Source of the DNA: Patescibacteria group bacterium
GTDB lineage: Bacteria; Patescibacteriota; Microgenomatia; UBA12405
Reading direction: 5' to 3'
Assembly (NCBI GenBank): GCA_013387215.1
Contig: WARW01000022.1
Coordinates: forward strand, 169,897-233,896
Length of the DNA: 64,000 nucleotides
Shown here: one piece after another, positions 4,419 through 22,881 of the stretch
How the letters are laid out: each line of letters opens with the position of its first letter
Position numbering within the stretch: the stretch's first letter is position 1
Made by a program: the position numbers and the translations under genes
Notes under the pieces: model-generated
The model's input: the letters and a program-made list of their open reading frames with translations, nothing else
What the model was told of the DNA's origin: nothing
Databases searched by the model: none

Positions 4419-4486
4419 TGGTTTTAAAATTTGAGCCTGGAAAATTAATATGGAAATTGTTGCTTATTTTTATGTAAAATATTGTA

Positions 4487-5544: not shown

Positions 5545-6465
5545 CTAATAATCACGCCAGGTGATATTTTGCTTTGCCCAATTTACTATCTCTTTTGTAT
5601 CCTGAAACCGATCATCGCTTTGAGCAACAACACTAATTAGTTTGTGCCCGTTTATATTGATTAAGCCAACAAAACAACCGCCTGCTTCTGGAGTCCAACC
5701 GGTTTTTAAACCTTCTATTTCCGGGATGACTCCCAACAGTTCATTGGTCGATTCAAGATTGTGTTGAATTTTATTATCAAGATCAGAAACTATGACTGAC
5801 TTATTTTTAACAATTTCAGTGATGGTGGGATTTTTTATGGCGATTCGAGAGAGTTGGGCCAGATCATATACTGTTGAATAATGATTTGGATCATGAAGAC
5901 CATCATAATTGGTGAAATGAGTGTCTTTGAGTCCATATTTTGACACCAAAAGATTCATTTGATCAACAAAACCGGTTATTCCACCTGGATAATGTTTAGC
6001 CAAATTATAGGCAGAATCATTGGCGGAATATACCAAAAGTGCAGTTACTAAAGATTTTACGGTCATTTTTTCGCCGGGCTGCAAATTCATGACTTGACCT
6101 TCAGTGAAAGCATCAGGAACCGTGATTACTTCATCCAGCGGATAAATATTAAGAGCAGTGATGGCAGTTGCCAGCTTAGTAGTTGAGGCTGGATAAATTT
6201 TATCGTGAGCTCTTTTAGAAACTAAAACAGTGTTTGTGGCACTGTCGATTAAAATATAACTACCAGCATTTGCCTGGGGAGGATTGGCAAGATGAATAAC
6301 CGGCACTTGCGGATGGTTAAATTGAGCCAGAGTGGTGTTTTGGGGAATGATTTTTACTTTTGGATAGATTGTCCACAAACCAGAAAACGGCAGCCAAAAT
6401 AAATTAAGAACTAATAATAAAAATATTATTATGAAACTAATTTTATTCGACTTTAGCAGATTCAT
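5545..6465 (-). CDS. dacA: D-alanyl-D-alanine carboxypeptidase (S11 family, PBP5-like)
   Basis: N-terminal TM; SxxK active-site motif ASTTK; overall PBP5/DacA-like architecture. Confidence 0.75.
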
Positions 6466-8221
6466 TTTTCTCCGGTTTTAACATCAAACCAACATCATCC
6501 AACTGTTTTTGACTGACTTCACTTGGAGCATTCATCATTAAATCTACCCCATTTGAATTGAGAGGGAAAGCATACACATCTCTAATGTTTGGTTCATCCA
6601 AAAGCATCATTAAAAATCGGTCGATTCCAATTGCCCAACCACCGTGTGGAGGTGCACCATAGTGGAAGGCATTGTACATGCCACCAAATTTTTTAATGAC
6701 TTCACTTCGTCCATAACCAATAACTTCAAAAGCTTTGACCAATGTTTCCGGCTCATGATTTCTGATGGAGCCAGAAGCGAGTTCAACTCCATTCATGGTT
6801 AAATCGTATTGATAGGATTCAATTTCCAAAGGATCTTGGGTTTTTAAAGCTTCCATTCCGCCTTTTGGCATTGAGAAAGGATTGTGGCCAAAATCGAGTT
6901 TGCCTTCATCATTGACTTCATAAAATGGAAAGCCAGTAATCCAAACAAGTGATAAAACATTTGGATTACGGAGATTTAACATATCGCCTAAGATAAGGCG
7001 TAAATGACCGAGTGATTTGTTAACAACGGATGGTTTGTCGGCAACTAATAAAAGTAAGTCGCCTGCTTTAGCATCAGTGGCTTTGATTAATTCTTTTTGA
7101 AGTTCTGGACTGAAGAAACGAGAAACTCCAATTTCTAAACCATTTTCAGTGACTTTAGTGTAGGCCAAACCTTTGGCGCCTTTTTCCTTAGCGATAGTTT
7201 CAAGTTTTTCAATTTGGCTTTTTGAATAATTGCCACAACCTGGAGCAACAATGGCTTTAATGTTTTCTGCATTATTAAAAACATTAAATTCACTTTTGCC
7301 TTTTAAGACATCAGTGACATTAATTAATTCAAGACCAAAACGAATGTCTGGTTTGTCGCTGCCAAATCTTTCCATGGCTTCTTTGTATGGCATACGTGGA
7401 AATGGAAATTGAGCAATTTTCTTTTGAGGCGCAGCAACTTCATAGGTTTCTTTGATTAATTTTTCGGCAGTGTCAAAAATTTTATCAATGGTGGGGAAAC
7501 TCATTTCAATGTCGATTTGATAGAAAACACCAGCATGTCTGTCGGCACGAGGATCTTCATCGCGAGCACATGGAGCGATCTGAAAATATTTATCGACTCC
7601 AGACACCATTAATAATTGTTTAAATTGTTGCGGTGCTTGAGGCAAAACGAAAAATTTACCTTTATGAATTCGGGATGGAATAATAAAATCTCTAGCACCT
7701 TCAGGAGAAGTGCTGGTCAAAAGTGGAGTCATAACTTCAGTAAAACCATTTTTTTCCATCCAGTTGCGAACAGCTAAAATGTAGGCGCTTTTCTTTTTCA
7801 TGATATTTACTAAACGTGGTCGGCGCAAATCAAGATAGCGATATTTTAATCGTAAAGATTCGTCGATTTCGGTGCCTTCAGTGTCAAGCGGAAATGGAAC
7901 AACTTCACTCTTATTTAAAACTTCCAATTTTTCGGCAATAACTTCAATAGTTCCAGTTTCCAAATTTGGATTGGAGGCTTTAGCGTCGCGCAAAACAACT
8001 TTACCTTCAACTTCAATCACCCATTCGGTTCCTAAACTAGAAGCGATTTTATGATTTTCTTGACTATCAGCAGCATTAACAACAACCTGAACAATTCCAC
8101 TCCAATCACGAAAATCAATAAAAATTAATTGACCATGATCACGAATATTACTGACCCAACCTTTTAATAAAACTTTTTCTCCAATATGCTGGAGAGCTTC
8201 TTTTGCTAATATTCTTTCCAT
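6443..8221 (-). CDS. aspS: Aspartyl-tRNA synthetase
   Basis: N-terminal OB anticodon-binding domain; class II motifs [12 protein letters not shown]...[13 protein letters not shown] and [14 protein letters not shown]. Confidence 0.92.
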
Positions 8222-8249
8222 GTTTTTTATTTTTTTTAATAACTAATTT

Positions 8250-8420
8250 TATACAAAAAAACCCGACGTGTGTCGGGATACGAAAAATAGCTTTCATTTT
8301 TCGTGCTCTGTTTCTAGTGTGACACACGTTGTAGTGTTTAACGGTTCTACTTCCGTAGGGTTCTAATAAGTGATTAACTTTTCTTCCCTCAGCTTCCCCG
8401 ATGTTTGTCGGGGTTAAACG
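8250..8420 (-). promoter_or_regulatory. Structured aspS 5' leader with candidate terminator/antiterminator switch
   Basis: Three hairpins on the minus strand; 9-nt segment 8321-8329 is the exact reverse complement of 8266-8274 (terminator 5' half plus loop), allowing a mutually exclusive antiterminator. Confidence 0.4.
8254..8277 (-). terminator. Intrinsic terminator hairpin (CCCGAC-ACAC-GUCGGG plus U8) about 30 nt upstream of the aspS start codon
   Basis: Perfect 6-bp GC-rich stem followed by 8 U on the minus strand. Confidence 0.7.
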
Positions 8421-8460
8421 CTTTTGTTTATAGTCTATTTTACTTCTAATTTAATGGATG

Positions 8461-12216: not shown

Positions 12217-13554
12217 ATGATGAAATTAATCATTCCAGAAAAAATTAAGAAAATAATCGACGTGTTTCATAAAGCAAACGCTGAGATTTATGTTGTTGGC
12301 GGAGCTGTCCGAGATTTGATGCTGAACCGAGAAGTAAAAGATTGGGATTTTACAACCAATTTAACTCCAGAAGAAATGAAAAAATTATTTCCAAAAAATA
12401 GTTTTTGCAATAATATTTTTGGAACTTTTAGTATAGTTGATAAAAGTGGAGAAATTTTTGAAGTAACAACATTTAGAACTGAACAGGGATATTCTGATAA
12501 AAGGCACCCTGATGAAGTTAAATGGGGAAAAAGTTTGGAAGAAGATTTGCAAAGACGCGATTTTACAATCAACGCCATGGCTTTGGATGTACAAAACGAG
12601 GAAATAAAGATCATCGATTTGTATAACGGCCAAGAAGATTTAAATAATAAATTAATCCGAACTGTTGGTAATCCAGATGAAAGATTCAGCGAAGATGCTT
12701 TAAGAATGATGAGAGCAATTAGGATTGCTTCACAAATTGGATTTTTGATTGAAGAAAAAACTTTTGAATCAATTCAAAAAAATGCTGGCTTAATTAATCA
12801 AATTGCCAACGAAAGAATTAGGGATGAATTATTCAAAATTCTGATGTCTTCAGTCCCCTCTCAAGGAATAATTCTTTTAAAAAATTCAGGACTTTTGAAG
12901 GAAATAATGCCTGAGTTATTGGAAGGCTATGAAATGAAACAAAAAGGCCATCATATTGATGATGTCTGGACTCATAATTTGAAAGCACTTGATAATTGTT
13001 TAAGCAATAATCCAATTACACGATTAGCTTGTCTTTTGCATGATGTTGGCAAGCCATCAACGGCTGTTGGTGAAGGTGAAGCCCGAACATTCCACAACCA
13101 TGAAATTGTCGGATCAAGAATTGCTGTTCAAATCGGAAAAAGATTAAGGTTGTCTAATAAAGAACTTGATCAATTATTCAAACTGGTGAGATGGCATATG
13201 TTTACTACTGAGGAAACGCAGACTGATAAAGCAGTCAGAAGATTTATTAGAAACGTAACTCCTGAATATATTGATGAAATGATTATTTTAAGAAGAGCTG
13301 ACAGAATGGGCAGCGGTGCCAAAGAAACCAGCTGGAGATGGGAGCTTTTTAAAGAAAGAATTGTTGAAGTGCAAAAACAACCTTTTTCAATTAAGGATCT
13401 GAAAGTAAACGGAAAAGACGTAATGGAAATTTTAAAAATTGAACCGAGCCGAAAAGTGGGCGAAGTTTTGGAATCTATTTTTAAAGAGGTTGAAGAAAAA
13501 CCAGAATTAAATGAAAGAGAAATATTATTAAAAAAAATTGAGGAGTACAAATAA
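12217..13554 (+). CDS. cca: CCA-adding tRNA nucleotidyltransferase with HD domain
   Basis: GGAVRD polymerase-beta motif, DWDF, RRDFTINA; C-terminal HD motif HHIDDVWTH...LHDVGK. Confidence 0.85.
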   Translation: MMKLIIPEKIKKIIDVFHKANAEIYVVGGAVRDLMLNREVKDWDFTTNLTPEEMKKLFPKNSFCNNIFGTFSIVDKSGEIFEVTTFRTEQGYSDKRHPDEVKWGKSLEEDLQRRDFTINAMALDVQNEEIKIIDLYNGQEDLNNKLIRTVGNPDERFSEDALRMMRAIRIASQIGFLIEEKTFESIQKNAGLINQIANERIRDELFKILMSSVPSQGIILLKNSGLLKEIMPELLEGYEMKQKGHHIDDVWTHNLKALDNCLSNNPITRLACLLHDVGKPSTAVGEGEARTFHNHEIVGSRIAVQIGKRLRLSNKELDQLFKLVRWHMFTTEETQTDKAVRRFIRNVTPEYIDEMIILRRADRMGSGAKETSWRWELFKERIVEVQKQPFSIKDLKVNGKDVMEILKIEPSRKVGEVLESIFKEVEEKPELNEREILLKKIEEYK

Positions 13555-15418: not shown

Positions 15419-16816
15419 TTATGCCTTTTTTACATCAAAATTAATATCTTTATTTGTTTTTGCTAAAACGCGGAGCAAGTTTCTGGTGACAAAGACACCA
15501 GTGAAAATACCGAGAAGAATTCCGAGAACTAGAGTTATTGCAAATCCTCGAACCATACCAGAAGTGTTTAAAAACGACCAGTTAAATGGATTAAATAAAA
15601 TTAGACCAGTGATAATAGTACAGGCATTAGCATCTTTGATGGAACTCCAAGCGTGAGTGAAACCAAGCTCCATAGCGATATTCCAAGGTTTCCCTTTTCT
15701 TAATTCTTCCCGCATCCGTTCAAAAATTAAGATATTACTATCGACGGCCATACCGACTGATAAAATAAATCCTACGATACCTGGGAAAGTTAAAGTAACA
15801 GGAATTAAGCGATATAAACTTAAGGTAATTAAACCGTATATTAAAAGTCCGATGTCAGCAATTAAGCCTAATTTTCCGTAATTTCCAACCATAAAGAGTG
15901 AAATAAGAATTAGACCGACAACACCAGCGAAAATACCTTTATTAATTGAATCTTTTCCAAGAGTGGCGCCAATCTGAGTTTGTTGGATCAACTTAATTGG
16001 AAGCGGAAGAGCACCTGCATTTAATTGTGCCGATAAAGCTTTAGCAGTTTTAGCATCGAAACTTCCATTAATGACCGCACGGCCATCTGTGATAACCACA
16101 CCGACTGTTGGATAGGTAATTATTTGGTCATCCAAAAAAATACCGATTCTTTTGTTTAAGAAATCTTTTGTTGCTTTCTCGAATAATTTTGTACCTTTTT
16201 CATCAAATTCCAAGGCAACTTCCGGTTCACCATTATTAGGATTAATTTCAACTTGAGATTTGACTAAGTTCGAACCATTGATTCCCGTATCAAATGGAAA
16301 TGCTTCTTTAAAAGTTGCGGATGCAGTGGAACTGGTTACTTTTTGATCTTCACCACGAAAACTTAGCTGAGCGGTTTGACCCAGTAAAGAAATAGCATCG
16401 GAAACATTTTCTACGCCTGGCAATTCAACAATCATTCGGTTTTGTCCGCCTTGGTTTGAGAGTTGAATATTGGCTTCACTAACACCAAAAAGATTAACTC
16501 TTCTTTCGATGTTACCTTTCAAAGCATCCAAAGCTGAAGGAAGATCTTCTTTTTTAACTTTTGTCGTATCGATGTCATATGAAAGTTCAGCACCACCAGC
16601 CAAATCTAATCCGTACTTTAGATTCAAATCTTTCGTAATAGTGTTAGAACCAATTTTATAGTTGAACTGAGGACGATATAAAGTGTGTTCCCAATTTATT
16701 TTGCCGAAATGAATTTTAATTGGCAAAGTTGTTGGCATGTTTATAACTAAACAGACTAGAGTAATGCCCATGATAGTCCAAAAGATTTTCATGGTTCGGC
16801 TTTTGATTTGAGACAT
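15419..16816 (-). CDS. secD: Protein translocase subunit SecD
   Basis: LDLAGGAEL periplasmic domain, C-terminal RND-like 6 TM bundle. Confidence 0.85.
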   Translation of the reverse strand: MSQIKSRTMKIFWTIMGITLVCLVINMPTTLPIKIHFGKINWEHTLYRPQFNYKIGSNTITKDLNLKYGLDLAGGAELSYDIDTTKVKKEDLPSALDALKGNIERRVNLFGVSEANIQLSNQGGQNRMIVELPGVENVSDAISLLGQTAQLSFRGEDQKVTSSTASATFKEAFPFDTGINGSNLVKSQVEINPNNGEPEVALEFDEKGTKLFEKATKDFLNKRIGIFLDDQIITYPTVGVVITDGRAVINGSFDAKTAKALSAQLNAGALPLPIKLIQQTQIGATLGKDSINKGIFAGVVGLILISLFMVGNYGKLGLIADIGLLIYGLITLSLYRLIPVTLTFPGIVGFILSVGMAVDSNILIFERMREELRKGKPWNIAMELGFTHAWSSIKDANACTIITGLILFNPFNWSFLNTSGMVRGFAITLVLGILLGIFTGVFVTRNLLRVLAKTNKDINFDVKKA

Positions 16817-19615: not shown

Positions 19616-19633
19616 GGTAAAATACACTATCCT

Positions 19634-19933
19634 AGAGAAGCTGAAGGGTTAACTCCGACGTAAAGCCGGAGAGGAAAGTCTGGACCACAAAAAGCAAGGA
19701 ACTTAAAAATATAGAGCAAGGCGTGAGCTTTGGGCAATGCTACAGAGACGAGTAGTCCCGCAAGGGATGAGATGAAACGAGCATCCTTCCTGTGGAAATC
19801 TCAAGTTGAGACGTTTGTATCTGGCTTCCCGAAGTAAATTCGGGATCAGGTTCGAAAGAATCTGATTTGAGAGTCTCAGGTGGAGAGAATAGATAGATGA
19901 CCCATAAACAGAATCCAGCTTAACAGTTTCTCT
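19634..19933 (+). ncRNA. rnpB: RNase P RNA (bacterial type A)
   Basis: P1 pairing AGAGAAGCUG/CAGUUUCUCU; P4 strands GAGGAAAGUCUGG and ACAGAAUCCAGCUUA match the universally conserved RNase P regions; TAAAAT -10 element 11 nt upstream. Confidence 0.8.
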
Positions 19934-19941
19934 GGGATATT

Positions 19942-20928: not shown

Positions 20929-20965
20929 GATTTATTTTATCATTACCGGCGTGTATTCCACGATC

Positions 20966-21952: not shown

Positions 21953-22881
21953 GGTTTATTGTACCATTCGCTTGCTGTTTCGAAGACATTTTGTTCCCAT
22001 AAGTTTTGAGTAATATCGAAGGAGTTGATGTTGGTCTTGTTTTTAAACCAGGTTTTTTGGCGACGGGCGTATGCATGTTCATCAAATTTCCATTGCTGAA
22101 TACAATCTTTGAGGGTCGCATCATAAGGTTCTTTTACGGATTTAACATTAAAGCTTTTTGCAAAATATTTTTTGAATTCTTTGTAGGCCAAAGTATTTAA
22201 TCCAATATCCGACCATGTGTATTTTTTTAATAATTTATTAATCTCTTCCAATAATCCTAACTTCAATCTAGACTCAACCCGCTTATCTATTTTTTGATAA
22301 AGATGATCATTGGGAGCAGTTAATGAAATATGAAGGTAATCAAATTTATTATTAGGAACTACAGATAATATTTTTTTTGGTGAAAGAGTAATTTCAATTT
22401 TTCTGATTAAGCGATGAGGATTGTGAACTTCAGAATTATTTAATTTTATATATTCAGATTTATTTAAAAATTTATATATTTTTTGTAAATTCGGAACAGA
22501 AAAATGTTTTAAAACAGTTCTTAAAATATGGTTTGGTTTGATTGAATATGTTTCACAATTGGAATTAATTATAGAATCTATATATAGGCCAGTACCGCCA
22601 ACTATTATAGGTAATTTACCTTTATTCTGAATTTCTTCGATTTTTTCTATAGCTAATTTTCGGTATTGAGCGACTGAAAAAGATTGGTCAGGATTAATTA
22701 GATCAATCAAATTAATATGGATATTTTTTGAATGATCTTTGCCAGTGCCAATATCCATTCCTTTATATATTTGACGCGAATCAGCAGAAATCAATTCACC
22801 ATTAAATTGTTTTGCCAATTTTATGGCTAAATCCGTTTTGCCAGTAGCTGTTGGCCCAGAAATGATCAAAACTTTATTCAT
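21949..22881 (-). CDS. miaA: tRNA dimethylallyltransferase
   Basis: P-loop GPTATGKT, SADSRQIYKGMDIGTGK. Confidence 0.85.
   Translation of the reverse strand: MNKVLIISGPTATGKTDLAIKLAKQFNGELISADSRQIYKGMDIGTGKDHSKNIHINLIDLINPDQSFSVAQYRKLAIEKIEEIQNKGKLPIIVGGTGLYIDSIINSNCETYSIKPNHILRTVLKHFSVPNLQKIYKFLNKSEYIKLNNSEVHNPHRLIRKIEITLSPKKILSVVPNNKFDYLHISLTAPNDHLYQKIDKRVESRLKLGLLEEINKLLKKYTWSDIGLNTLAYKEFKKYFAKSFNVKSVKEPYDATLKDCIQQWKFDEHAYARRQKTWFKNKTNINSFDITQNLWEQNVFETASEWYNKP

Follow-up and report, generated by a model that had tools for sequence, protein, structure and literature searches.

A putative T-box-derived, tRNA-directed attenuator upstream of aspS in an uncultivated Patescibacterium

The recJ-aspS spacer in the genome of an uncultivated member of the Patescibacteria (Shapirobacteria) carries on its minus strand a sigma-70-like promoter, a structured leader of ~170–205 nt, an intrinsic terminator and an antiterminator strand. 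This leader is probably a T-box-derived transcription attenuator directed by a tRNA, namely tRNA-Asn. It is regarded as a derivative of a T-box and not as an unrelated attenuator because its 5′ half is a T-box decoding module. That aspS is preceded by an attenuator other than a canonical T-box had been postulated in the initial annotation, and this is supported by a recurring alternative pairing and by competing folds in 17/17 leaders. All coordinates refer to the window, which is the whole 64-kb stretch of DNA that was analyzed, and all features described lie on its minus strand.

Promoter, downstream gene and homologous leaders

The whole element extends from a TTGACA-16-TAAAAT promoter (8464–8437) to the aspS start at 8221 and exceeds the span first noted (8250–8420). 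The promoter, P1 (8437–8464), consists of the −35 box TTGACA (8464–8459), a 16-nt spacer and the −10 box TAAAAT (8442–8437). It matches the consensus at 11/12 positions, obtained the top score of a 7-kb promoter scan and overlaps the recJ stop codon, with a predicted transcript start at ~8430. In all homologous leaders the −10 box is present at an equal distance upstream of the sequence AAAGCG. The gene proposed to be regulated is aspS (6443–8221, ATG at 8221), which encodes a bacterial-type aspartyl-tRNA synthetase (AspRS) of 592 aa containing the Pfam domains PF01336, PF02938 and PF00152; P0001 is 100% identical to it. The gene order recJ-aspS-peptidase S11-(347 aa)-gltX is maintained in relatives.

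Single parts of such an element are not rare, since ~5 lone terminator-like sites are expected per 7 kb and ~0.15 lone 9-nt inverted repeats are estimated per 280 nt. The window leader folds better than 200/200 dinucleotide shuffles (z = −3.95), and it is decisively more than a chance arrangement because 18 further homologous leaders are conserved with compensatory changes. These 19 leaders in total are all located upstream of aspS in Shapirobacteria-like contigs. A comparison of related aspS upstream regions had been proposed together with the initial annotation and speaks in its favor: besides the compensatory changes, the alternative pairing recurs with 7–8 bp in the closest relatives.

A covariance model built from three non-canonical leaders, termed R1, is matched over its full length by the window at 8321–8425 (126.9 bits). 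The same model also retrieves canonical T-box cousins from metagenomes (E ~1e-7). Within the 64-kb window, the search for a second copy of the leader gave just a weak R1 match at 15761–15856 (E = 0.19) located within an ORF. Scans of viral contigs with two patterns yielded chance matches alone (phage lysozyme genes and similar; at least 120 random loci).

The decoding module and its specifier

Judged by sequence and covariation, the 5′ half of the leader (8425–8321, its 5′ 105 nt including the invariant block C) qualifies as a genuine T-box decoding module with an ultrashort Stem I. Across 17 leaders, 90.5% of the cells are paired; the value for shuffles is 73%, and slid controls do not exceed 44%. 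Both sides change in 17/26 pairs.

The module is closed by a base stem (8391–8422) in which AGC (8422–8420) pairs with GCU (8393–8391), flanking a K-turn-like internal loop GUUUAA/AA and enclosing Stem I. Here, an A-U pair is replaced by G-C in leader L242, and the Rfam alignment of the cousin L109 sets the equivalent GCGAUGAA...UGAGC on the T-box K-turn. Beside Stem I, most members display a tandem GA/GA motif, in place of which AA/AA is found in the window and its nearest relatives. Stem I itself (8396–8413) is ultrashort, with the arms CCCCGA/UCGGGG and the apical loop CAAACA. Changes on both sides are seen in 6/6 of its pairs, the variants being CCCCG/CGGGG, CUCCG/CGGAG, UUCCG/CGGAA, GGUG/CACC, GGCG/CGCC and GUCCG/CGGAC.

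The initial annotation had listed a further GC hairpin at 8399–8416. This hairpin is real and lies at 8413–8396; its role as Stem I with a specifier codon had been missed, and with it the whole 5′ half as a T-box decoding module. In the window, the Stem I hairpin is also an 88% copy of the terminator hairpin.

Downstream follows Stem II (8357–8389), composed of a lower stem AGGG/CCCU, a purine-rich S-turn-like loop AAGAA/UUAGAA and a variable upper stem-loop. In the lower stem A-U changes to G-C or U-A, and the upper stem occurs as AAGU/ACUU, GGG/CCU or UCCU/AGGA, with a long insertion in L238. Stem IIA and the pseudoknot IIB (8331–8356) are formed by the hairpin ACGG-AAGUAGAA-CCGU (8356–8341), an F-box-like CCGUUA (8344–8339), and the pairing of GUAG (8350–8347) with CUAC (8334–8331). 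The pseudoknot lies outside the model, yet 4/5 of its pairs change on both sides (e.g., AU:7, UA:6, CG:4). In L109, these sequences are assigned to Stem II and IIA/B by the Rfam T-box alignment.

Two other folds of this region were discarded. For a tRNA-like cloverleaf with a four-way junction (8422–8333), the stem 8422–8413/8342–8333 is not conserved and the hairpins are the T-box Stems I, II and IIA. An ACAC/GUGU hairpin competing with the pseudoknot is present in the window and is not conserved.

The link to known T-boxes is provided by the cousins. Searched against the Rfam T-box family RF00230 (gathering score 93), L109 is found with E = 8.8e-9 (49.7 bits) and L112 with E = 3.7e-5 (35.6 bits). 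In these alignments the shared elements map to Stem I, which has a 74-nt deletion, and to Stem II, the F-box of IIA/B, Stem III and the T-box. Cousins with this module of Stem I, Stem II and IIA/B run on into canonical T-box sequences (GGUGGCACC, AAGGUGGUACCACGG), and an AspRS-type gene is located downstream wherever the next ORF falls inside the fetched locus. The window leader (191-nt search) as well as L097, L096 and L116 gave no match to RF00230 at E ≤ 10. An Rfam scan had been suggested with the initial annotation; no T-box or other family was matched by the window leader in scans of 901 nt, 191 nt, the whole window and 20 related loci.

This missing Rfam match, together with the missing T-box sequence, would also fit a generic terminator/antiterminator attenuator unrelated to T-boxes, relying for example on a leader peptide or on NTP sensing, and a short ORF (MKAIFRIPTHVGFFCIKL...) indeed begins at 8296 in the window. 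However, this AUG, the sole one in the 3′ domain of the window leader, is not conserved and is missing in L019, L008 and others. A leader-peptide attenuator of the trp or pheST type was rejected, as no ORF is conserved across the leaders. Furthermore, the 5′ half is homologous to Stem I, Stem II and IIA/B of T-boxes, and due to the chain of homology from the window via R1 and L109 to RF00230, a generic attenuator is largely refuted and appears extremely improbable.

Within the T-box-derived element, the identity of the tRNA is suggested by the apical loop of Stem I. This loop presents AAC (8405–8403), an Asn codon, followed by the purine A (8402), so that the motif covers 8402–8405. AACA is invariant in 19/19 apical loops; the stems and the remaining loop bases vary. 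T-boxes containing Stem II as a rule have a C as the third specifier base (PMC7583486). The cousins upstream of aspS carry GACA at the position of AACA, and in L105 this GACA is accompanied by UGGC in the T-box and by a tRNA-Asp with G73 on the same contig. Because L105 pairs GAC-A with UGGC and a G73 tRNA-Asp, the reading frame of the specifier is validated. The tRNA-Asp that had initially been named as the effector to test is replaced here, as the AAC specifier points to tRNA-Asn as the likely effector. Binding of AAC to the GUU anticodon of tRNA-Asn would imply that this AspRS is non-discriminating and also charges tRNA-Asn. The relevance of tRNA-Asn to this AspRS would follow from the known non-discriminating AspRS pathway. 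No tRNA-Asn gene was found in the 64-kb window or in 42 related loci.

The terminator/antiterminator switch

The intrinsic terminator (8255–8277) consists of the stem-loop CCCGAC ACAC GUCGGG (8277–8262) and a U7 tract (8261–8255) and ends 33 nt ahead of the aspS ATG. It was recovered by a consensus scan and corresponds to the terminator of the initial annotation, except that the tract had been counted as U8. A GC-rich hairpin followed by a U tract is found at the terminator position in every homologous leader with differing stem sequences; an identical terminator sequence is present in L249, L250, L095 and L099.

Two nucleotides after the pseudoknot lies block C, A-CGUGUGUC (8321–8329), the predicted 5′ strand of the antiterminator. 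Its exact 9-nt complementarity to 8266–8274, which had been reported before, holds. This predicted 3′ strand of the antiterminator, GACACACGU (8266–8274), spans the 5′ strand and the loop of the terminator and reaches 2 nt into its 3′ strand. In folding, block C pairs with 8274–8266 once the 3′ strand of the terminator is withheld. The antiterminator encloses hairpin H (8280–8304; ACGAAAAAU / AUUUUUCGU, loop GAAAGCU), which occupies the position of helix A2 and is likewise real, with arms at 8280–8288 and 8296–8304 (previously given as 8281–8303). Hairpin H exists in all leaders with variable loops and shows compensatory changes such as CGAU/AUCG in L095 and CCGAAA/UUUUGG in L097. The helices of terminator and antiterminator are mutually exclusive, as in T-boxes. 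All folded leaders (17/17) contain a terminator hairpin with a U tract and a rival fold that uses the terminator 5′ strand within 1–10 kcal/mol, and in 4/17 the antiterminator fold is the minimum-energy structure.

The pairing of block C with the terminator comprises exactly 9 bp in the window and 7–8 bp in its clade (L238 8 bp; L241, L095, L099, L249 and L250 7 bp each), in L008 and in L248. It is at chance level in L242, L245, L096, L246, L019 and L239. Where this pairing is weak, other helices beside GAGCA compete with the terminator. Since the GUGUGUC of block C is invariant in 19/19 leaders, even without terminator pairing, its conservation must have a further cause.

One candidate for such a cause is an autoregulation by AspRS. 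Here, the synthetase would bind an anticodon-arm mimic formed by block C and the next bases (U-GUC-AC), which would keep block C from joining the antiterminator. Such a mechanism would resemble the E. coli thrS operator in spirit, but would act on termination. In line with this, GUGUGUCAC of the window and its clade contains UGUCAC, which equals positions 33–38 of the L105 tRNA-Asp (CUGUCAC), and block C stays invariant even where it is unpaired with the terminator. On the contrary, no conserved anticodon-stem-like helix is seen around block C, with at most two flanking pairs in the window, and 10/19 leaders display UGUCG (UGUCGU, UGUCGG, UGUCGC) and L106 displays UGUCAG, by which the equivalents of A37-C38 are lost. 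The mimic was rejected as it is not conserved in most leaders beyond the clade of the window, and an autoregulation by AspRS, which also fails to account for the conserved T-box decoding module and for the AAC loop, is considered very unlikely.

A second invariant block, GAGCACGA (8301–8308), opens hairpin H with its ACG and reads GAGCC in L097 and L248. Its GCACG can pair with CGUGU of block C to form helix X, which is the predicted minimum-energy fold in L019, L100, L106 and L008 and whose apical extension, as read from the sequences, covaries in the non-window group. In the canonical cousins L112, L109 and L113, the place of helix X after the pseudoknot is likewise taken by a hairpin. A further reading is a composite sensor, in which the decoding module would be combined with another ligand domain in the 3′ half and the UGU/GAG core of helix X would bind a small molecule, an ion or another RNA in place of the discriminator. 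Between the invariant blocks a helix can form whose conserved core consists of U.G / G.A / U.G, a conservation beyond what Watson-Crick pairing needs, and block C remains invariant in L242 and L245, where it has no partner in the terminator. However, the 3′ domain is of small size and lies in a context that varies strongly between groups, the core shows no covariation because it never varies, GAGCC in L097 and L248 disrupts the X pairing without compensation, and no Rfam family is matched. A composite sensor is considered highly improbable.

The T-box-derived leader lacks the defining bulge of T-boxes. In canonical T-boxes, a 7-nt bulge with the sequence UGGN pairs with the NCCA end of the uncharged tRNA. 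As the initial annotation had stated, the T-box consensus is absent from the window leader, where the count of the trinucleotide UGG is zero. Within the 3′ domain, UGG is missing in 13/19 leaders. UGGA is found in L238, L099 and L249, where it falls on a site prone to indels that is not the same among near-identical relatives. The position homologous to the bulge is occupied by a segment of 2–5 nt at GAGCA, partly paired in the antiterminator fold. Several hidden bulges were considered and rejected: UGGAGCC in L097 and L248 is explained by terminator pairing (GUGGAG/CUCCAC) and by pairing with UACCA, CGGAGCA and CAGAGCA cannot pair with NCCA, and UGGAAAC, seen in L238, L099 and L249, gives way to UAGA, UUGA or UUUGA in relatives that are otherwise nearly identical. 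A pairing of GAGCA with the GCU between Stems I and II was dismissed as well, since the base stem, and not GAGCA, carries the change that compensates for U-to-C in L242. On the basis of its sequence, the 3′ half is not a T-box discriminator.

The loss of the discriminator might also mean that the tRNA response is gone. The leader would then be a decaying T-box relic, which works solely as a constitutive terminator or insulator following recJ, or else attenuates weakly and to a fixed extent, with aspS being transcribed from a proximal −10-like box. Such a box, TGTATAAAAT (8246–8255), can be read from the sequence between the terminator and aspS and may represent a second promoter, P2. Similar boxes are located 6–7 nt before the ATG in L095, L096, L097 and L100 as well as in relatives without a leader. 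A −10-like box downstream of the terminator means that aspS may not depend on read-through. Furthermore, the leader is missing from most close relatives (19/21 species representatives with upstream sequence), and these leaderless species representatives (19/21) carry a GTAAAAT box 6–7 nt before the aspS ATG. The missing UGGN bulge and the heterogeneous antiterminator pairing among members would also be in line with decay. In contrast, the decoding module is under purifying selection, with compensatory changes in every helix and the pseudoknot and with an invariant AACA, although the specifier and the pseudoknot would be expected to go first. GUGUGUC and GAGCACGA are invariant in 19 loci despite wholly replaced Stem I sequences, and a promoter is retained ahead of every leader. 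A decaying relic is an unlikely alternative to a functional attenuator.

Proposed mechanism, known systems and implications

For a functional, tRNA-Asn-directed attenuator the following mechanism is proposed. Transcription would start at P1, and the decoding module would present AAC-A in the apical loop of Stem I, where AAC would bind the GUU anticodon of tRNA-Asn. A tRNA seated on the decoding module, whose end is 2 nt away from block C, would favor the antiterminator: block C would pair with 8274–8266, enclose hairpin H and abolish the terminator, leading to read-through into aspS. Without the tRNA, block C would be held in a local pairing or in the X pairing with GAGCACG, so that the terminator would form and transcription would stop at ~8255. 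It is possible, although only tentatively proposed, that a bulge-less lineage of T-boxes in Patescibacteria regulates via the anticodon-reading module alone. It would sense tRNA-Asn with a free anticodon, i.e., outside AspRS or the transamidosome, and binding would free GUGUGUC for the antiterminator.

Among the closest known systems are the class II T-boxes with an ultrashort Stem I, as reviewed in PMC7583486 for actinobacterial ileS of Mycobacterium and Nocardia (Sherwood 2015; Battaglia 2019; Suddala and Zhang 2019). [quoted passage not shown] Known class II members act on translation by sequestration of the Shine-Dalgarno sequence and keep a full discriminator (Stem III, A1, UGGN bulge, A2). 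In contrast, the element described here ends in an intrinsic terminator, lacks the UGGN bulge and is hosted by Patescibacteria, where Shine-Dalgarno sequences are rare.

With the leaders of RF00230, the element shares the location ahead of a synthetase gene, the K-turn-like base, the specifier, Stem II, IIA/B and the F-box, and also the mutually exclusive terminator and antiterminator, the 3′ strand of the latter being part of the former. It differs from them by the absence of a long Stem I (the equivalent of 74 nt is missing), of the 14-nt T-box sequence and of the pairing with the tRNA NCCA end, and by a score under any reportable Rfam threshold. Moreover, its antiterminator 5′ strand is GUGUGUC, located 12–25 nt upstream of the A2-like hairpin.

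A tRNA-Asn-reading T-box has been described in Clostridium acetobutylicum, where an Asn/Glu "two-codon" T-box controls the transamidation operon (Saad 2013, cited in PMC4052509). There too, a tRNA-Asn specifier is placed over the machinery for indirect Asn-tRNA-Asn formation including a non-discriminating AspRS; that element has a canonical long Stem I and a normal T-box bulge and belongs to the Firmicutes. Here, a single AAC is present in the apical loop and the discriminator is missing.

The closest systems also include the metagenomic cousins L094, L103, L105, L108, L110, L114, L104, L109, L112 and L113, which have the same decoding module and an intrinsic terminator. Unlike the window leader, they retain UGGC or UGGU T-box bulges. 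Their specifiers are mostly GAC (Asp), with AAC in L104 and GUC in L112.

T-boxes are defined, found and mechanistically understood via the 14-nt T-box sequence, which pairs with the uncharged NCCA end. The leaders described here would represent a conserved family in which the decoding half is under selection and the charge-sensing half has been swapped for another conserved switch. This suggests that the domains of a T-box are evolutionarily separable. T-box-type regulation would thereby extend to the Patescibacteria, where current models have left it undetected, and the intrinsic terminator would go against the generalization that an ultrashort Stem I stands for translational control. The Asn specifier on aspS further predicts that Asn-tRNA is made through a non-discriminating AspRS in these organisms. 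The family offers a natural system to ask if anticodon binding by itself can drive a genetic decision. Anticodon-only reading, if true, would amount to a novel way of tRNA-dependent riboregulation, in which half a T-box provides a direct feedback loop between a synthetase and its own gene.

The recJ-aspS leader and its distribution

In the window, recJ (10134-8461) and aspS (8221-6443), both on the minus strand, are separated by a 239-nt spacer, and the top-scoring sigma-70-like promoter of the 7-kb neighbourhood, TTGACA-16-TAAAAT, is located at 8464-8437 (minus). The 214-nt leader RNA adopts a fold more stable than 200 of 200 dinucleotide shuffles (z = -3.95). Here, the initial annotation had described four elements, and all are present on the minus strand at the positions it gave: an intrinsic-terminator-like hairpin CCCGAC-ACAC-GUCGGG (8277-8262) followed by U7 (8261-8255), a 9-nt segment (8329-8321) exactly complementary to the terminator 5' strand and loop (8274-8266), a hairpin between these two (8304-8280) and a GC hairpin close to the leader 5' end (8413-8396). 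Its statement that a T-box consensus is absent was borne out as well: Rfam places no family at the leader, T-box included, even at E<=10 (191-nt query).

A -10-like box (TGTATAAAAT, 8255-8246, minus) lies 3' of the terminator and may, by its sequence, be a second, unregulated aspS promoter. Such a box between terminator and ATG is also present in the leader loci L095, L096, L097 and L100, and in several relatives it lies 6-7 nt from the ATG, as it does at loci that lack the leader.

The window AspRS shows 70-87% identity to proteins from MAGs of Candidatus Shapirobacteria and related Patescibacteria. The leader is absent from 19 of the 21 species representatives with upstream sequence; there, aspS follows recJ after 20-40 nt and a GTAAAAT box lies 6-7 nt ahead of the aspS ATG, which implies a leaderless aspS mRNA. 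A homologous leader is present in the loci L008 and L019. Furthermore, a Stem II pattern scan yielded eight metagenome contigs with the leader (L095 and L117 share one leader sequence), and close AspRS proteins led, without any RNA pattern, to ten more (L238, L239/L240, L241, L242, L245, L246, L248, L249, L250), which carry nine distinct leaders, L239 and L240 being alike in this element. These nine together with L008 and L019 are the eleven leaders retrieved by AspRS proteins. With the window included, 19 distinct leaders are known, all located immediately 5' of aspS, mostly in the synteny recJ-aspS-peptidase S11.

Some loci display extra features. L238, whose AspRS is 87% identical, is the nearest relative of the window. 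There, an insertion of about 570 nt (1727-2290) containing small ORFs separates recJ from the leader, and Stem II of the leader carries a 30-nt extension. Between terminator and aspS start, L019 (2907-3000), L008 (2855-2990), L241 (about 2400-2500) and L249 and L250 (about 1100-1200) contain an insertion of about 100 nt, a conserved module with two hairpins (CUUUAGG...CCUAAAGACACNAUCC-hairpin-GGAU). This insertion might carry a promoter or represent a small mobile element. In some relatives, a YbaK-type aminoacyl-tRNA editing domain (PF04073) is fused to AspRS or encoded directly after it (proteins P0099 and P0103, 741 and 740 aa; L242 3261-3740).

Decoding module and specifier

Judged from its sequence, the 5' half of the leader is a T-box decoding module. 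The pattern scan also gave leaders, called cousins here, which are alike in the 5' part and contain a canonical T-box sequence in the 3' part: UUCGGUGGCACC (L105 family), AAGGGUGGCACCG (L104) or AAGGUGGUAUCGCGG (L109, L113). Their downstream ORF is an AspRS-type gene wherever it was contained in the fetched locus. The Rfam T-box model aligns L109 (E = 8.8e-9) and L112 (E = 3.7e-5), both under the gathering score of 93 bits. In this alignment, the shared first hairpin maps to Stem I with a 74-nt deletion, GAGGGAAGAA...GUAGAACCCU to Stem II and ACGG...CCGUUA to Stem IIA/B and the F-box, followed by Stem III and the T-box. R1, a covariance model based on three non-canonical leaders, retrieves every non-canonical member (E 1e-12 to 1e-26) as well as the canonical cousins (E ~1e-7).

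In a 17-sequence alignment, 90.5% of the cells are paired under the proposed structure, versus 73% in shuffles and at most 44% in slid controls, and 17 of 26 pairs show two-sided changes. Stem I is wholly replaced across lineages (CCCCGA/UCGGGG, GGUG/CACC, GGCG/CGCC, GUCCG/CGGAC). The pseudoknot, with two-sided changes in four of five pairs, is not part of the model, and its covariation is therefore no alignment artefact. Since the eight pattern-scan loci were retrieved by means of the two Stem II blocks, these blocks are invariant there by construction; natural, compensated variation (UAGGG, UUGGG, UGGGG...ACUCCA) is seen in the eleven protein-retrieved leaders.

The Stem I apical loop reads N-N-AAC-A-(N) throughout, with the asparagine codon AAC in all 19 bulge-less leaders. 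This is the layout of ultrashort Stem I T-boxes, whose short Stem I displays the specifier in its apical loop, with a purine directly after it. In these, tRNA binding is taken over by Stem II and the pseudoknot, and an S-turn forces a C in the third specifier position (PMC7583486). The cousins validate this reading frame: the L105 family combines GAC-A in the loop, UGGC in the T-box and aspS downstream, and its contig also encodes a tRNA-Asp(GUC) whose discriminator base is G73. Since an AAC specifier stands before aspS, the simplest reading of these sequences would be that this AspRS is non-discriminating and charges tRNA-Asn too. The non-discriminating AspRS pathway is well established (PMC2330236, PMC3367201), and a T-box reading tRNA-Asn on a transamidation operon serves as precedent (Saad 2013, as cited in PMC4052509).

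The 3' half and the terminator switch

The 3' half is not a T-box discriminator. Downstream of the pseudoknot follow the invariant block C (GUGUGUC), a variable linker of 7-23 nt, an invariant GAGC(A/C)CGA, an A/U-rich hairpin H, a short spacer and the terminator. A 7-nt UGGN bulge is present in none of the 3' halves; UGG is absent from the whole window leader and from the 3' domain of 13 of 19 leaders. As T-box remnants, several motifs were rejected: UGGA in L238, L099 and L249 lies at an indel-prone site (UAGA, UUGA or UUUGA in near-identical relatives), UGGAG in L097 and L248 pairs with CUCCA/G of the terminator, and CGGA and CAGA are unable to pair with NCCA.

When the terminator 3' strand is withheld, 17 of 17 folded leaders take a fold that uses up the terminator 5' strand. 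Its outer helix is mostly block C with GACAC..., its inner part is a (G)GA-UC(C) helix beside a 2-nt GC bulge, and hairpin H is the third part. This alternative lies 1-10 kcal/mol above the terminator fold and is the minimum-energy structure in L238, L242, L096 and L246. The 9-bp pairing of the window is retained at 7-8 bp in its own clade, L008 and L248, exceeding composition-preserving shuffles (P 0.005-0.06). In L242, L245, L096, L246, L019 and L239, pairing of block C with the terminator is at chance level, and other helices directly 5' of GAGCA rival the terminator: AUUUGCGG with CCGCAAAU in L242, and the mutually compensatory variants UUACG/CGUAA, UAACG/CGUUA and UGGUG/UACCA in the others. 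Neither GUGUGUC nor GAGCACGA varies, not even where the predicted partner does.

Block C is also predicted to pair with GAGCACG (C-G, G-C, U-A, G-C, U.G, G.A, U.G), forming helix X, which is the predicted ground state in L019, L100, L106 and L008. Outside the clade of the window, the sequences add a covarying hairpin cap with GCAA, AGUA or UCUU loops, and the canonical cousins have a hairpin at this position. Since ACG is common to helix X and hairpin H, a multi-segment switch would result, with X and terminator opposed to H and antiterminator.

In the window, the Stem I hairpin (8397-8412) and the terminator hairpin (8262-8277) are direct repeats of 88% identity (CCCGACAAACAUCGGG and CCCGACACACGUCGGG), so that the 5' strand and loop of Stem I are likewise a 6/7 complement of block C. 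Neither L238 nor the leaders with a GGUG-type Stem I show this likeness of the two hairpins.

Proposed regulation and relation to known T-boxes

Mechanistically, binding of tRNA-Asn to the decoding module would tip the balance toward the antiterminator, and aspS would be induced when tRNA-Asn is available and unengaged. For a bulge-less leader, anticodon-only sensing, a new kind of acceptor-end contact or a partial loss of function are possible. At 12217-13554 (plus), 4 kb from the leader, lies a gene for a CCA-adding enzyme with PolyA_pol head, HD and tRNA_NucTran2_2 domains, and its presence makes tRNA 3' ends of an unusual kind unlikely.

Shine-Dalgarno motifs are rare in the window (about 8 of 54 ORFs), hence read-through aspS transcripts could be translated like other internal genes. 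TAAAAT or TATAAT boxes stand 5-8 nt ahead of the ATG in many window genes (e.g., 4470-4486, 21953-21970, 20929-20945), and this sequence pattern suggests that leaderless mRNAs are widespread. For the RNase P RNA of the window (19633-19934, plus), the best-scoring model is that of the archaeal type, RF00373 (101.7 bits, E = 2.8e-27), rather than a bacterial one.

Our literature searches found no report of T-boxes in Patescibacteria or the candidate phyla radiation. By function and ancestry the leader is a T-box relative, and it has neither the T-box bulge nor a match to the Rfam model, two of the features that define membership. In the described pattern, an ultrashort Stem I goes along with translational control in Actinobacteria, and transcriptional T-boxes need a long Stem I (PMC7583486), whereas in bulge-less leaders and canonical cousins alike an ultrashort Stem I occurs together with an intrinsic terminator. 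All ten cousins (L094, L103, L105, L108, L110, L114, L104, L109, L112, L113), leaders of AspRS-type genes with ultrashort Stem I, intrinsic terminator and canonical T-box, score under the Rfam T-box gathering score. Transcriptional T-boxes with a 'translational-type' decoding module thus exist and are missed by current models.
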